Assembly (NCBI GenBank): GCA_965204575.1
Contig: OZ241993.1
Span: 1,568,001 to 1,632,000 of the forward strand
Direction: 5' to 3'
Source: an uncultured candidatus Porisulfidus sp.
GTDB taxonomy: Bacteria > Pseudomonadota > Gammaproteobacteria > Poriferisulfidales > Poriferisulfidaceae
DNA: 64,000 bases
Part shown: positions 48,069-53,091 of the stretch, in pieces
Layout: each line of letters opens with the position of its first letter
Position numbering within the stretch: position 1 is the first letter of the stretch
Position numbers and translations under genes: made by a program
The notes under the pieces: generated by a model
Told to the model about the DNA's origin: nothing
The model's input: the letters and a program-made list of their open reading frames with translations, nothing else
Databases searched by the model: none

Positions 48069-49808
48069 CTAAAGCGACTCGATGTGTTGGATGTTCAACA
48101 TGCAGGATCGGTGCCCCTGATACTCATCCACGCTCAGTTCGTACACTAGCCTGAACCGAGAACTCTCCGGATCCCAGTCGAAGCGGTCGTGAGAAAACGC
48201 CATGGCCTTGATTCGGCGTTCCGGATGTCCGATTGGATTGAGATGGAACCGAGTGTGGGCACCCTTGAAAGTCCGACGATCCTGAATCTCGAACTCGCCC
48301 TCGAACAGCGGCGGCAGGAAATCCCTTCCCCAAGGATGGCCGAGTACGGCGAATTCTGCATTTTCAAGCGTCAATTCATCGCTAGCCAGTTCGCCGTCCG
48401 TCTCAATGGTCTGGCTCGGCCGCACGCCCCCTAACGCTTTCGAGACAGCCTGTTCCAGCAGAGCCTGAAATCGCTCCAGCCGACTTTCCTCCAACGTCAA
48501 CCCCACCGCCATCGCATGGCCCCCGTAACGCTGCATCAGCCCTGGCTCCGCCTGCTCCACATCGACCAGCGCGTCCCGGAGGTTGAGGCCCGAAACCGAG
48601 CGCCCGGACCCTTTCAAAAGGTTGTCCTGACTTTGGGCAAACACGATGGTCGGCAAACCGCACCGCTCCTTGATGCGCGACGCGATGATGCCCACCACAC
48701 CCTCGTGCCAATTCGGCCGGTAAAGGCATAGGCTCATTGCCTGGTCGGTTTCAAGGGACAACTGTTCGACCTCGCGCAACGCTTCGGCATGCATCGAGCC
48801 TTCCTCGTCACGCCGCCGGGTGTTGATCTGATTCAACTGCTCGGCGAGATCGTGGGCTTCGACACGGCCTTCCGCAAGGAGGCACCGGATTCCGATCGCG
48901 ATGTCTTCCATTCTCCCGGCCGCATTGATGCGCGGCGCCACCGCGAATGCCAGGTCCGTGCTGCCGACCTGCCTCGGGTCGCGTCTGCCGTAGCGAAGAA
49001 GAGAAACGATCCCGGGAGCCCCCCGACCTTGCCGGATACACCGCAACCCATGTTCCACCAGAATTCGGTTGTTCCGGTCCAGCGGCACAACATCGGCCAC
49101 CGTGCCCAGCGCCACCAGGTCCAGGAACTGAGCCATGTTTGGTGCTTCGATGCCCTTTTGGGCAAACCATCCTTCCTTCTCCAAGTGCTGGCGCAAAGCC
49201 AGCATCACGTAAAACATGACTCCGACACCCGCAAGAGCCGTGCTTGCAAAACTGTCGGGGGGGCTGTTTGGGTTGACGATGCAATCAGCCTCGGGCAGAT
49301 CGTCACTTGGAAGGTGATGGTCGGTAATCAGCACCCGGATGCCACGCTTGCGGGCCTCTGCCACTGCCGCCTGGCTCGACATCCCATTGTCGACCGTCAC
49401 AATCAGGGCGGGATCTCGCTGCTCGACTTCCTCCATCAATTCCGGGCAGAACCCGTAGCCGTGCTGGAAACGATCCGGCACCAGATAGTCCACATTCCCG
49501 TAGCCCATCGCATGCAGGCTGCGTATCGCGACGGCCACGCCTGTCGCACCGTCCGCGTCGTAATCGCCAACCAACAGAATGTGCCCGTCCTCGCGCATCA
49601 CGGAATGCATCATTTCTGCCGCCTGAACACAGGCTGGGAATTCGTTGACCGAGTGTAGCTGCCGCAGCGACAGTTCAAGCTCGTCCGGATCGGTGATTCC
49701 GCGCTGGGCGAACACCCGCCGTTGTAGCGGCGGCAAGGCCTGAAGCGCATCCAGCGCTTCTGGAGAAGCGCTCCTGCGGGTGATTTTGGGTTGAGGCCGA
49801 GTATTCAA
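48069..49808 (-). CDS. recJ: ssDNA exonuclease RecJ
   Basis: DYDADG, DNG, DHH, GTVADVV and GGHAMA motifs. Confidence 0.96.
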   Translation of the reverse strand: MNTRPQPKITRRSASPEALDALQALPPLQRRVFAQRGITDPDELELSLRQLHSVNEFPACVQAAEMMHSVMREDGHILLVGDYDADGATGVAVAIRSLHAMGYGNVDYLVPDRFQHGYGFCPELMEEVEQRDPALIVTVDNGMSSQAAVAEARKRGIRVLITDHHLPSDDLPEADCIVNPNSPPDSFASTALAGVGVMFYVMLALRQHLEKEGWFAQKGIEAPNMAQFLDLVALGTVADVVPLDRNNRILVEHGLRCIRQGRGAPGIVSLLRYGRRDPRQVGSTDLAFAVAPRINAAGRMEDIAIGIRCLLAEGRVEAHDLAEQLNQINTRRRDEEGSMHAEALREVEQLSLETDQAMSLCLYRPNWHEGVVGIIASRIKERCGLPTIVFAQSQDNLLKGSGRSVSGLNLRDALVDVEQAEPGLMQRYGGHAMAVGLTLEESRLERFQALLEQAVSKALGGVRPSQTIETDGELASDELTLENAEFAVLGHPWGRDFLPPLFEGEFEIQDRRTFKGAHTRFHLNPIGHPERRIKAMAFSHDRFDWDPESSRFRLVYELSVDEYQGHRSCMLNIQHIESL

Positions 49809-49902
49809 AAAACAGTGTGCTCGAATCTACAGCCACCCTAGGAATTCAGGTGGGTGAGCCGCAGGTTGGATTTTACAGGACTGCTTCCGACCGTATTCCG
49901 AC

Positions 49903-50190
49903 CTAAGCAGCCACGATTCGTTCGATGTTAATTTTGTGCTCCAAATCGCGCGACTGGGCAAGATCGAAAGCCAACTGCATACCGAGCCACGTTTCAGGGG
50001 TCGAGCCGAACGCCTTCGATAGACGGTAAGCCATCTCAATGGAAACGGATGCTTTCTCGTTGACCAGATTAGAAAGCGTCTGGCGTCCGACCCCCAGCCG
50101 ACTGGCAGCTTCTGTCACCGATAGGCCCAGAGGTTTCAAACACTCTTCCCGCACGATGATGCCGGGATGCACAGGATTTTTCATTGCCAT
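49903..50190 (-). CDS. higA: HigA-family antitoxin (HTH), separated from its RBS by the insertion
   Basis: MAMKNPVHPG..REE.LKPLGLSVTEAA..LGV.RQTLS and AFGSTPETWLGMQ motifs. Confidence 0.9.
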   Translation of the reverse strand: MAMKNPVHPGIIVREECLKPLGLSVTEAASRLGVGRQTLSNLVNEKASVSIEMAYRLSKAFGSTPETWLGMQLAFDLAQSRDLEHKINIERIVAA

Positions 50191-50195
50191 TTCAG

Positions 50196-50330
50196 GGAAA
50201 TTATGTATGAAAGTTGACAGAGGATTCCTCGCCAACTTTCACCATTTCTTGACGCTTCCCAGGCCGACTGTGGCGGGATGCCCCGCCGGTGTCGCCACCT
50301 CCACGTCCAGTCGCCCCATTCCCGAAGGCC
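50196..50330 (-). ncRNA. Predicted omegaRNA scaffold overlapping the tnpB 3' end and right TIR
   Basis: Hairpin GCCTT-CGGGAAT-GGGGC, hairpin GGCGGG-GCAT-CCCGCC, long terminal stem 50203-50245, and loop GGGAAT complementary to terminal ATTTCC. Folded by eye. Confidence 0.62.
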
Positions 50331-51459
50331 AAGATGTTTAATGCGGCGTTCACATCCGCATCGTCCGCGTGCCCGCAAGCGGTGCACTTGAAGTCTGTTC
50401 CATTTCTGTTTTCTCATCGACGTGCCCGCATGAATGGCACGTCTGGCTAGTGTACGCCGGATGCACATGGCGCATTTCCATCTTGTAGTTCAGACACAGC
50501 TCCAGCGTGCCCCATGCGCTGGCCAGGATCTTCCGGTTGAGTCCTGACTTCTGTTTCACGTTCTTGCCGGGTTTCTCCACCGTGCCCTTGGCCGACTTCG
50601 TCATGCCCCGGATGTTCAGTTTTTCTACGTAAGCGACATCGTACTCGGAGGCAATGCTCTTGCTGACGTGGTGCGCCCAGTTGAGGCGGGCGAAGCGTTC
50701 CGCCTGGTACGCCTTCTGCAACTTCACCTTGGTGATCGCCCTACGGTTGCTTCCCTTCACCTGCCGTGCCATCTTGCGCTGGTAGCGCCTACGTTTTGCC
50801 ACCTTCCTCCCCAAGTCCGGGCCCGGGTACTTCGTGCCGTCCGAAAGAACCGCCCAACCATTCTCGTTTACATTGCGGTCGATTCCGACTTCCCGAATGC
50901 TGTGCGGAAGACTCGCTTCCGCCTGGACTTCATAGGTCAGGTAGGCGTACCACTTGCCGCATTCGTATCTGATCCGCCCGGACTTGAACTCGCCGTCCGG
51001 GTACGGATTGTTGCCGACCAGCTTCATCCAGCCGACCTTCTACACGAGCAGGCTTTCTCCCGCTACTCGTGCTGATTGATAATCAATCGGAAAACTTGGA
51101 ATAGTGCTGTACTTGCCGTGAAACTGCGGCAGTTTCCGGTTCAGTTTCCCGCCGGTCTCCCGATCCTTGAAGAATTCCTTGTAGGCCGTTTCGATAGGCT
51201 TCAAAGAGGTCCGGACCGCTTTTGACGAATAGCCCTGCAGCCACTTCGTCGTGCCATCCTCCCTCCGCATGACGGTGAAGACATGACACAGCGAATAGTG
51301 CCGAAAGTCCGGCTTGATTCCGAATTCGTACTCGTCCCTGAGCTTCCCGACCATGTGGTTCCAGACGAAGCGGCAGGCCCCGGCGGTGCCGTGCAACTGC
51401 TGGTTTTTTCGTGCAGAACCCGGATGCAGGCGGTAGCGGACGGTGCGGGGGACTTTCAT
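50201..51459 (-). pseudogene. tnpB: RNA-guided endonuclease TnpB, disrupted by an in-frame TAG (51040-51042) and a 1-nt deletion (A4 at 50409-50412)
   Basis: RYRLHP..GACRFVWN N-terminus; RuvC motifs GIDRN, VEKL and DADVNAALNI; Zn finger CHSC...CTAC; the repaired ORF is about 419 codons and ends at a TAA inside the TIR. Confidence 0.9.
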
Positions 51460-51465
51460 AGGAAG

Positions 51466-51493
51466 ATTGTCTTCAAGGCTCCCTATTTGTCAA
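51466..51493 (-). promoter_or_regulatory. Putative tnpB promoter with -35 inside the left TIR (leaderless mRNA)
   Basis: TTGACA-16 bp-GACAAT-6 bp-ATG; no SD sequence adjacent to the ATG. Confidence 0.5.
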
Positions 51494-51525
51494 CTTTCAT
51501 ACATAATTCCCCATTCCAGTATCTC

Positions 51526-51591
51526 CTGGTGGTAATCAAGACAGGCAACATCCAAGACCTTCCCCTCCTCGAATCGAAATGTCCTGATTAT
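51526..51591 (-). pseudogene. higB: higB toxin remnant (internal deletion, start codon lost)
   Basis: Reads IIRTFRFEEGKVLDVACLDYHQ, i.e. a HigB-type N-terminus (MIRTFR) fused to a C-terminus (TFRF...DYH); upstream of higA in the reconstructed empty site. Confidence 0.72.
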
Positions 51592-51675
51592 TTGCTTATT
51601 GTTGGTGTCTATTGGCAACAGTCAACCTGAATCCGGACAAATCCCCTTGCTAAAATTGTTTTCAGGCTCACATTC

Positions 51676-53091
51676 ATGACCGAAAAAATCCTTTTCCTGA
51701 CCGGGAAGCTTGCCGAGCGGAGCCTGCATCGCGTGCTGGAATCCATGCAACCGACGGACTTCGACTACGAAGTTCGCCAGGTCGGCGCGAGCGTTGCCGC
51801 GCTGATGACCCCCAAGTTGATCCAGAAACGGCTTGAACTCCCTCCAGGAATCGACCGCATCCTGCTTCCCGGCCGAGTGCGCGGGGATCTGGAACCACTG
51901 GAAGCGCAATTCGGAGTGCCGGTCGAACGGGGTCCCGATGAACTCAAGGATCTTCCCACCTATTTCGGTCGAGCCGCGATGGCGGAAGATCTGACCCGTT
52001 ACGATGTCCGGATCTTCGCCGAAATTACCGAAGCGCCAAACCTTGACCTAGACGAAATCCTGGCCGAGGCCCGCCGCTATCAGGAAGACGGTGCCGACAT
52101 CATCGATGTCGGCTGCCTGCCGGGAGTGGAATTCCCGCATCTGGCCGAAACCGTGCAAATGCTCAAGCAGGAAGATTTCGTCGTGAGTGTCGACTCGCTC
52201 GAAACGCAGGACCTACTCACCGGGGGGCAGGCCGGTGCGGACTTTCTCCTGAGCCTGAAGTCGGACAGCCTGTGGGTTGCCGACGAAGTCGAATCCGTCC
52301 CTATCCTGATCGGCGACAGCAACACAGACCTTGAGTCCCTGTACGCCTGCATTGAAAACTGTTTGGAGAAAGACCAACCGTTTATCGCCGATCCGATCCT
52401 GGATCCCGTCCATTTCGGCTGCGCCGACTCTATCGCCCGGTACGTTGAACTCCGCCGGCGCTATCCAGATATTCAGATGATGATGGGCATCGGCAACCTG
52501 ACCGAGCTGACCCATGCGGATACGGCCGGGATGAATGCTCTCCTGTTCGGCCTGATCTCCGAACTGAAAATCCAATACGCACTGACCACCCAAGTCAGCG
52601 AACACTGCCGGACTTCACTGCGTGAAGCGGATCGTGCCCGAAGAATCATGCGGGCTGCTGCGGCTCATGGAATTCCCCCAAAGGGCATCGACGACCAGTT
52701 GATGATGCTGCACGAGCGACACCCATTCCCATACAGCCCGGAGGAAATCGCCGAATTTGCCGCCCAGGTGAAAGACCCCAATTTCCGAATCCAAGTCGCC
52801 GAAGATGGCGTTCACCTGTACAATCGGGATGGTGAACTGATTCATACGGATCCGCTCGACTTCTATCCGGACCTGAACCTGGACGACGATCCCGGCCACT
52901 TGTTTTATTTGGGCATTGAACTGACACGGGCTCAGATTGCATGGCAGCTTGGCAAACGTTACGAGCAGGACGAAGATTTCCTGTGGGGATGTGCAGTGAC
53001 GGCGTCAACCAAGGATCTGTCGGCTTTCAGGGAAGTCGGCCCTACCCGCCAAAAACACAAGGACGCGATCAAACATAGGAAGGATTCCTGA
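51676..53091 (+). CDS. Dihydropteroate-synthase-like protein (DUF6513; methanopterin biosynthesis Orf20-like)
   Basis: ILFLTGKLAE, RGPDELKDLP, GADIIDVGCLP, DPILDP, GNLTELT and WQLGKRYEQDE motifs. Confidence 0.8.
   Translation: MTEKILFLTGKLAERSLHRVLESMQPTDFDYEVRQVGASVAALMTPKLIQKRLELPPGIDRILLPGRVRGDLEPLEAQFGVPVERGPDELKDLPTYFGRAAMAEDLTRYDVRIFAEITEAPNLDLDEILAEARRYQEDGADIIDVGCLPGVEFPHLAETVQMLKQEDFVVSVDSLETQDLLTGGQAGADFLLSLKSDSLWVADEVESVPILIGDSNTDLESLYACIENCLEKDQPFIADPILDPVHFGCADSIARYVELRRRYPDIQMMMGIGNLTELTHADTAGMNALLFGLISELKIQYALTTQVSEHCRTSLREADRARRIMRAAAAHGIPPKGIDDQLMMLHERHPFPYSPEEIAEFAAQVKDPNFRIQVAEDGVHLYNRDGELIHTDPLDFYPDLNLDDDPGHLFYLGIELTRAQIAWQLGKRYEQDEDFLWGCAVTASTKDLSAFREVGPTRQKHKDAIKHRKDS

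Follow-up and report, generated by a model that had tools for sequence, protein, structure and literature searches.

The RNA of the ISDra2 TnpB, solved by cryo-electron microscopy for this member of the IS200/IS605 family, consists of four stems and a pseudoknot, in which positions -5 to -3 (plus -6 and -2) pair with -103 to -105, between the two strands of stem 1, and in which stem 2 joins -35 to -32 with -81 to -84. The report of that structure (PMC10097598) equates the pseudoknot and stem 4 with the CRISPR RNA (crRNA)-repeat-like part before the guide, with a single base, -1A, between pseudoknot and guide. TnpB has also been described inside elements that have inverted terminal repeats (ITRs) and DDE transposases, as six branches, with IS630 named among the partners and with solo TnpBs that have the same ends (Altae-Tran 2023, PMC10691335), an association that a 2026 review describes as rare and of unclear benefit (PMC13565253). 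For the RNAs of the Fanzor1 and Fanzor2* elements (reRNAs), the terminal inverted repeat (TIR) and a short target site duplication (TSD) are predicted to belong to the scaffold, and the RNAs extend ~15 nt beyond the TSD (Yoon 2023, PMC10711439). Here we examine a tnpB-only element in a 64,000-nucleotide stretch of DNA (the window) from an uncultured candidatus Porisulfidus sp. (contig OZ241993.1, positions 1,568,001 to 1,632,000), and compare its ends and its predicted omegaRNA with these systems. The comparison points to an arrangement that we regard as probable, namely an omegaRNA that has the right TIR built into its scaffold and takes its guide from the host flank.

The element occupies positions 50196–51511 of the window (1316 bp, minus strand, as are all features of the element given below) and is one decayed copy of a tnpB-only, non-autonomous family with ISL3-like ends, which we place in group A, TIR subtype A1. 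Its left TIR, GGGAATTATGTATGAAAGTTGACA (51488–51511), was recognised by a repeat search and by its co-variation with the right end among copies, and the right TIR (50196–50219) is its complement save for one transition. Both are 24 nt long; the repeat search itself returned arms of 25 nt (50195–50219 and 51488–51512) with 96% complementarity, and the TIR motif has two matches in the window against none in 100 shuffles. The host genome, a single 1.82-Mb contig that is 98.75% complete, holds seven copies at 71–100% identity and one fragment. Homology among the seven ends exactly at both element boundaries: in a MAFFT alignment the right-end similarity halts at the identical base (...AUUCCC) in 7/7 copies, and the left and right ends of the TIRs vary together between copies, including c2, c5 and c7. 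The TSD is 8 bp long. Its right copy, CTGAAATG (50188–50195), ends in the ATG at the start of higA, and its left copy, CTGGAATG (51512–51519), differs by one transition; at an orthologous insertion in another assembly (L020), CTGAAATG flanks both sides. The element lies between the higB stop and the higA ATG. Two same-genus genomes (G009 and G016) carry the empty site, in which an intact higB is followed by ...GGAGGT(A/G)TTGAAATGGCAATG..., the higA start; higA is intact there too, and the element thus inserted into the 8 bp ending in the higA ATG. An automatic search found an 8-bp TSD (at most one mismatch, adjoining the TIR tip) in 40 of 78 elements, and de-duplication and removal of one spurious pairing (L053 was left out of the TSD table for a spurious pairing over 2290 bp) left 38 unique sites, 27 perfect and 11 with a mismatch. 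A search of same-genus DNA gave no insertion sites beyond those already known.

Read in the tnpB sense, the 3' end of the element contains a predicted RNA with the layout of the ISDra2 omegaRNA. Directly after the RuvC-III codons (D-A-D-V-N-A-A-L-N-I, 50362–50333) lies stem 1 (50313–50332), a hairpin GCCUU-CGGGAAU-GGGGC (50329–50313) identified by RNAalifold and pair counts, and its loop GGGAAU (50323–50318), the putative 5' strand of the pseudoknot, is complementary to AUUUCC, the last six bases of the element. Stem 2 (50251–50307), also from RNAalifold, pairs GACGU (50307–50303) with GCGUC (50255–50251) and encloses the stem 3 region, which includes the hairpin GGCGGG-GCAU-CCCGCC (50287–50272). 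In stem 4 (50203–50245), folding brings an internal TIR-like segment, AUGGUGAAAGUUGGCGAGG (50245–50227), onto the inner part of the right TIR, CCUCUGUCAACUUUCAUACAU (50223–50203), and the TIR tip that follows, AUUUCC (50196–50201), is the 3' strand of the pseudoknot. The right TIR would therefore supply both the 3' strand of stem 4, with its inner part, and that of the pseudoknot, with its tip. A first-pass annotation, generated by a model from the letters alone, had picked out the two hairpins, the TIR stem and the loop/tip complementarity, and all four lie where it had placed them; the succession that it proposed, a 5' hairpin loop pairing with the last element bases, a TIR stem and then the guide, is that of ISDra2 (PMC10097598) and is borne out by the covariation of stems 1–3 and the pseudoknot described below. 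The 140-nt region folds at -66.6 kcal/mol (z = -5.13, with 0/200 shuffles as good), and its stem-4 segment at -21.4 kcal/mol (z = -6.0). Rfam contains no family that matches positions 49000–52500 at E up to 10.

For the comparison we collected about 70 related 3' ends from 10–11 lineages. The combination of TIRs and tnpB recurs in two further groups of the same genome, B (3 copies) and C (6 copies), at 30–38% amino acid identity, and at ~40% identity in assemblies of Rhodothermales, Caldilineaceae and Pseudomonadales and in metagenome contigs. Among more distant metagenome relatives (~30% identity), 0/51 leaves reach a TIR score of 13 (10 were not scorable), against 34/70 leaves of the TIR lineages, the automated threshold (score >=13) being one that under-calls old copies. 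The leaves are ordered with the 51 TIR-less ones first and the 70 of the TIR lineages after them, and this order may point to a single origin of the TIR lineages.

Stems 1–3 were predicted independently in group A by RNAalifold, which on 43 sequences from outside group A returned 13 pairs, 10 of them with compensatory changes. Within these 43 sequences, stem 1 is paired in 99.4% of cells, with 4/4 pairs changed on both sides; stem 2 in 98.8%, with 3/4 pairs changed on both sides (CG 27/GC 16; AU 33/GC 10; GC 38/AU 3); the base of stem 3 in 96.5%; and the pseudoknot, in register 0, in 81.2%, with 3/5 pairs changed on both sides. The structure as a whole is paired in 93.3% of cells against 34–59% with slid partners, and its covariation score was reached by 0/500 shuffles. 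These counts for stem 2 come from the non-A alignment (A4), as the MAFFT alignment A1 misaligned the 3' strand of stem 2 in group A; group A was counted on alignment A3, where stem 2 is invariant. One sequence, L056, was left out of the RNA alignments on account of a deletion that removes stem 1.

The pairing of the stem-1 loop with the TIR tip is the part of the structure that ties the RNA to the end of the element. In a 59-sequence alignment, the 4-bp core of the pseudoknot is 97.5% paired, with GC 45/CG 6/UA 5/GU 3 at one pair and AU 50/GC 6/other 3 at another. The loop changes together with the tip: group A has GGGAAU/AUUCCC, group C GGCGCU/AGCGCC, and lineages D, F, E, H and I have GGGAUUG/UAAUUCC, GGUAGUG/CACUACC, GGGAC/GUCCC, GGGGA/UCCCC and GGGGC/GCCCC, respectively. 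Eleven lineage representatives form helices between their own loop and tip of 6, 4, 6, 7, 6, 5, 7, 5, 5, 5 and 3 bp, and in 7/11 no other part of the RNA pairs better with the tip than the loop does. The sum over matched loops and tips, 59.55 against a permutation mean of 44.4, was reached by 29/100,000 permutations of the tips. As the loop and tip hardly vary within group A, the support for the pseudoknot comes from a comparison between groups, that is, between related and non-independent lineages.

The position of the guide follows from this structure. With the TIR tip as the pseudoknot's 3' strand, the scaffold would end at, or one base before, the element boundary, and the guide would consist of the TSD and the flank. 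For the window copy it would read CUGAAAUGGCAAUGAAAAAU (50195–50176, with a 20-nt length assumed), the TSD plus the start of higA, in agreement with the guide named by the first-pass annotation, and the right TSD copy would form its nucleotides 1–8. Compared by eye, this guide matches the empty site of G009 and G016 at 19/20 positions. On the other side of the target, the base 5' of the left TSD (-1) is G in 28/38 and a purine in 36/38 insertions of TnpB elements, and the next two positions to the left are nearly without C; the right side of the TSD shows no comparable base signal in the same 38 insertions. Autonomous ISL3 copies have G at -1 in 1/13 rows (12 copies from three genomes, one in both orientations), a difference with a Fisher p of 4e-5, and the excess over the local background has a binomial p of 2e-12. 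Within the same genome, group C elements have G at -1 in 4/4 cases against 0/3 for ISL3 copies with common TIRs. Judged from these sites, the G or purine at -1 looks like a target-adjacent motif (TAM) of TnpB. Where the element is present, the TIR tip ...CCC stands before the DNA that matches the guide, and this, together with the G or purine at the empty site, is the pattern expected from a TAM acting on empty sites. The first-pass annotation had sought the TAM within GGAGATA; the purine at -1 agrees with this, and nothing beyond that base was confirmed among the 38 insertions. Contigs from sponge metatranscriptomes are weakly compatible with read-through into the flank. One of 727 nt, ~93% alike, spans 49826–50538 and so covers the 3' part of tnpB, the TIR, the TSD and higA, and one of 155 nt from a second sponge run crosses a right end and continues for 41 nt into another flank. 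The two RNA runs (X1 and X2) entered as small shares and as contigs, which are silent on strand, ends and expression level, and their uncovered parts are uninformative.

The gene that would provide the nuclease is a pseudogene in the window (50201–51459), broken into three open reading frame (ORF) pieces by an in-frame TAG (51042–51040) and a 1-nt deletion near 50410, and the stop codon of the intact reading falls inside the right TIR. Intact ORFs of 411–429 amino acids are present in 5/7 copies of the genome (c3–c7). The intact paralogue c4 (positions 443,467-444,772 of the genome), the same gene at 87% DNA identity, matches the NCBIfam model NF040570 (guided_TnpB) with 204.4 bits (cut-off 100) and has all three Pfam TnpB domains, including OrfB_IS605 and Cas12f1-like_TNB, above their cut-offs, and residues 9–386 of its protein align with the ISDra2 TnpB structures 8BF8 and 8EXA at E = 1e-23. 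D194, E279 and D369 are invariant in an alignment of seven lineages and are also kept in the intact copies of this genome; from the motifs GIDRN, E-x-L-N and D-x-N-A-A, we take these columns to be the catalytic RuvC residues. The intact copy c3 (G000:C1:834207-835522 of the same genome) has H-A-G-N-A-D in place of the H-A-D-D-A-D of the other copies, next to V-N-A-A on its N-terminal side, and retains the D immediately before V-N-A-A.

The ISL3 family typically has 8-bp TSDs and TIRs of 15–39 bp, and the ISL3 copies examined here agree. Three identical copies of this family lie in the same genome (G000:C1:36846-38195, 236195-237543 and 396973-398321), with perfect 8-bp TSDs. The resident ISL3 copies and a same-genus ISL3 have TIRs that align with the TIRs of the six group C tnpB elements, and by its ends group C looks like a non-autonomous passenger of ISL3. 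For group A, an ISL3-type mobilisation may be inferred from the TSD length, the form of the TIR and the sister group. The ISL3 copy of G001 has ends that differ from the group A type, GGGAATTAT, and the same-genus ISL3 copies have group-C-like ends. No match to the Y1 transposase family PF01797 was found in the 98.75%-complete, single-contig genome, whose other insertion sequences are two IS110-type elements and one more. A fourth, weak match to PF01610 in this genome (793189-793509) was rejected as a transposase, its 441-amino-acid frame looking by eye like a membrane desaturase; the weak PF01610 match of this desaturase-like frame recurs in most same-genus genomes.

Several observations weigh against an omegaRNA with the TIR in its scaffold and a guide from the flank, or restrict how it could work here. 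First, the tnpB of the window is broken, and any activity of this copy would depend on TnpB made by paralogues. Second, the minimum free energy (MFE) fold of the window copy alone contains the GGCGGG-GCAU-CCCGCC hairpin and the TIR stem but another pairing in place of stem 1, and stem 1 therefore rests on the comparative evidence. Third, the pseudoknot is not uniform: in register 0, 18.8% of its cells are unpaired; its register shifts by one base, ending at -1 in A, B, C, E, H, I and J and at -2 in D, Dx and F; the group B helix is limited to 4 bp (GGGG/CCCC); I and J have a 7-bp alternative, formed with the 3' arm of stem 1, that ranks above the loop; and lineage K (L110) scored 3 bp in the fixed window, where its stem 1 is displaced (its folded loop, UGGGAU, would permit a GGGAU/AUUCC pairing by eye, which was not counted). 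Within group A itself, loop and tip are nearly invariant. Fourth, the own genome, G001 and 60 relatives yielded no transposase bearing GGGAATTAT-type ends, and 5/7 same-genus genomes with group A copies hold only a weak partial PF01610 match. Fifth, group A shows a degenerate -1 position (A 7, G 6 of 13), and the -1 signal could instead reflect the target preference of a transposase. Finally, the metatranscriptome contigs are ~93% alike, and DNA carry-over is possible.

The first of the competing explanations is that these are features of the DNA alone: the internal TIR copy would be a second transposase site or a DNA hairpin, the coding GGGAAU would copy the TIR tip by chance or through constraint on the protein, and the real omegaRNA, should one exist, would lack the TIR. 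TIRs are transposase sites by definition, the loop does sit in conserved codons (A-F-G-N-G-A), and in lineage F (metagenome contigs L096, L100 and L103), whose left end lies ~300 nt upstream of tnpB, a TIR of ~50 bp holds all of stem 4, so that the hairpin is present at both ends. The behaviour of the sequence by strand speaks otherwise. In every sequence folded, the part that lies between stem 2 and the final 6 nt forms one long hairpin, and the sense strand folds more stably than the antisense strand in 52/70 cases for stem 4 (p = 5e-7) and in 62/70 for whole RNAs (mean 7 kcal/mol, p = 9e-11), with G-U pairs making up 176 of 1141 bp in sense and 97 of 960 in antisense; this strand-specific stability and the excess of G-U pairs argue for a structure at the level of RNA rather than DNA. 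The arms of stem 4 differ among the three TIR subtypes of group A yet stay complementary (RNAalifold on A3 recovers only 4 bp of stem 4, as the three subtypes do not align, and stem 4 was judged from per-sequence folds). The left end in group A has no matching internal TIR-like copy, the loop follows the tip in lineages where the peptide changes too (GGCGCU, GGUAGUG, GGGAC, GGGGA, GGGGC), and the layout corresponds to the solved omegaRNA element for element. On this evidence we consider a purely DNA-level origin of the features very improbable.

It is also conceivable that the RNA structure is correct and that in this host the system, with old copies and no matching transposase, is a relic or has been re-used; a read-through RNA over the higA start may then act, if at all, on higA expression and not on homing. 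The setting lends this some plausibility, as the element separates the higB stop from the higA ATG, beside a higB that is internally deleted here, the window copy and c2 are pseudogenes, the copies differ by 4–29%, 11/38 TSDs have a mismatch, and the cognate transposase was not found in the genomes named above. Set against this are the intact ORFs with invariant D/E/D columns in 5/7 copies and the several identical copies of lineage D in G001 with perfect TSDs, which indicate that lineage D has been active recently, while the conserved structure and the G signal at -1 argue for selection on function. We hold relic status or re-use to be very unlikely.

Some right ends of the IS605 family finish in TCAA. 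That the scaffold ends at GUCAA, with a fixed internal TIR-like segment (GAAAUGGUGAAAGUUGG...) as the guide and TnpB hard-wired to its own TIRs, has the least to commend it and is highly improbable: GUCAA, GUGAA or GCCAA is kept in all lineages, 45–60 nt from the end, and the following segment looks like the TIR as oriented at the left end, but the CGUC of the motif forms a helix with the GACG that directly follows stem 1, and compensatory changes occur in it (GACG/CGUC, GACAG/CUGUC, CACG/CGUG, GGCG/CGCC, CGCG/CGCG), so that the motif corresponds to stem 2 of the ISDra2 architecture, 30–35 nt before the guide there (PMC10097598), the segment departs from the TIR by 1-nt indels and G-for-A changes that are G-U pairs in a hairpin and mismatches in a guide-target duplex, and an internal guide leaves the covariation of loop and tip unexplained. 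A scaffold boundary after GCGUCAA, on which the first-pass annotation had made its proposal depend, is likewise disfavoured, the motif being the 3' strand of a covarying stem 2 and being followed by a conserved hairpin. GUCAA was considered in addition as an ancestral IS605-type right end with an internal guide, and was dropped given the ISDra2 architecture and the covariation of stem 2.

Other members of the family and the neighbouring locus show further rearrangements. Copy c2 (G000:C1:435815-437063, L002) has a gene 96–97% identical to that of the window copy, with the frameshift in common, and carries the other TIR subtype (A2) at both ends and no GGCGGG-GCAU-CCCGCC hairpin, a mix of features that suggests recombination or gene conversion between subfamilies. 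A miniature inverted-repeat transposable element (MITE)-like element of ~570 bp in the same genome (G000:C1:16583-17150) has A2-type TIRs (GAGAATTATGTAGCAAAATC... and ...GATTTTGCTACATAATCCCC), keeps a ...CCTGTCAA motif beside its right TIR and probably arose from a TnpB element by internal deletion; position 395875 of the same genome holds an A2-type left end on its own. The higB gene upstream of the insertion (51513–51640, minus strand) lacks ~200 bp internally in the window genome relative to L232:1660-1950 and L231:1240-1540, apparently between the short direct repeats ACATTTCG and ATATTTCG, and is intact in both empty-site genomes. In L118 (1900-2220) and L119, the predicted omegaRNA seems to stop ~100 nt short of an ISL3-like TIR (ATGGCTCTAATAAC...) and its loop is unlike that tip; these two do not fit the model proposed here, and possibly represent a canonical element nested in another one.

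We propose a model in which the TIR-bearing scaffold and the flank-derived guide would operate as follows. (i) Transcription in the tnpB sense would give an omegaRNA that starts in the last tnpB codons and whose scaffold would comprise, in order, stem 1 (with the loop as the 5' strand of the pseudoknot), stem 2 (with the CGUC of GUCAA in its 3' strand), stem 3, stem 4 and the pseudoknot's 3' strand, with the guide after it. (ii) Stem 4 would arise by pairing of the internal TIR-like segment with the right TIR's inner half, and the last 5–7 bases of the TIR would make the 3' strand of the pseudoknot, so that the scaffold would end at the boundary or one base before it. (iii) The transcript would read on into the host, with the 8-bp TSD and the right flank as its guide. 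(iv) This guide would match the unoccupied allele, where the bases left of the single TSD copy would serve as the TAM, and the occupied locus would be spared, as the TIR tip ...CCC precedes the match there. (v) Intact paralogues may load the RNA and cut empty sites, giving homing or retention as for IS605 TnpB. (vi) An ISL3-family DDE transposase acting in trans would move the element, a step that is supported for group C and inferred for group A.

If this model is correct, the guide RNA has been re-fitted to a different transposition chemistry, the TIR doubling as the last stem and the pseudoknot and the TSD becoming the seed end of the guide, and the family would offer a concrete and testable example in which TnpB is allied with a cut-and-paste or copy-paste element of DDE type. 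The asymmetric G beside the TSD is a possible in-genome footprint of selection by TnpB and, if confirmed, would be direct genomic evidence for homing outside IS605 and IS607. About ten natural scaffold variants with matched pseudoknots would be usable for engineering. The arrangement would also link bacterial TnpB to that reported for the eukaryotic Fanzors. A more speculative extension, which we regard as doubtful, is that these bacterial elements are a missing prokaryotic counterpart of Fanzor-type elements, their guide RNA having fused with the TIR of an ISL3-like DDE transposon. The TIR tip would then be under a triple constraint, as left end, as right end and as part of an RNA pseudoknot, and the cutting of empty alleles may decide which insertions persist, which would explain the G 5' of the TSD. 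At its boldest, this reading has TnpB homing, and not a transposase, maintain and spread group A where no matching transposase exists, as in 5/7 of the same-genus genomes with group A copies.

The element combines traits of several known systems. With ISDra2 it shares a protein that aligns end to end, a predicted RNA that starts in the 3' codons of tnpB, the same order of stems and pseudoknot, and a predicted guide from the right flank. ISDra2 differs in having no TIRs and no TSD, in its Y1 TnpA and in a TAM that is the target of TnpA, whereas the window element has both TIRs and a TSD, its TIR supplies the 3' strand of stem 4 as well as that of the pseudoknot, and the first 8 guide bases would be the TSD. 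With its 24-nt TIRs, its 8-bp TSD and no Y1 TnpA match in its genome, the element falls outside IS200/IS605, and the TIRs and TSD likewise set it apart from IS607, for which the serine recombinase itself was not searched for. Like ISL3, it has 8-bp TSDs (perfect in the 13 ISL3 rows) and TIRs of ~24 nt that start with GG, and group C has its TIRs in common with resident ISL3 copies; unlike ISL3, there is no transposase gene in the element, and the group A TIR (GGGAATTAT...) matches no ISL3 copy found.

The DDE-associated TnpB branches share with it the ITRs around TnpB and a tnpB 3' end near the transposon end, here within the limit of <=250 bp used in that survey (PMC10691335); ISL3 has no mention in the main text of the survey, and the part of that text considered here contains no RNA structure and no covariation between TIR and pseudoknot. 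A literature search returned no paper that links TnpB with ISL3 or describes a fusion of TIR and pseudoknot in bacteria, and the supplements of PMC10691335 may list these lineages. The closest parallel in the RNA is with Fanzor1 and Fanzor2*, as described in PMC10711439, where the TIR is likewise predicted to belong to the scaffold, the RNA runs into the flank and the elements are non-autonomous and encode the nuclease only. The Fanzor elements are eukaryotic or viral, have a short fixed TSD within the scaffold and, in Fanzor1, lack a pseudoknot (PMC10711439). Here, in contrast, the hosts are bacteria, the TSD, an 8-mer of variable sequence, has to be part of the guide, which separates this RNA from a Fanzor-type reRNA, and the pseudoknot is kept and made with the TIR tip. 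The principle of a TIR in the scaffold is thus already published for the eukaryotic relatives and has been hinted at for bacteria; what is new is the bacterial, ISL3-like case, a retained pseudoknot that is made with the TIR tip and covaries over about ten lineages, a guide predicted to begin with the 8-bp TSD, and the TAM-like footprint beside it.

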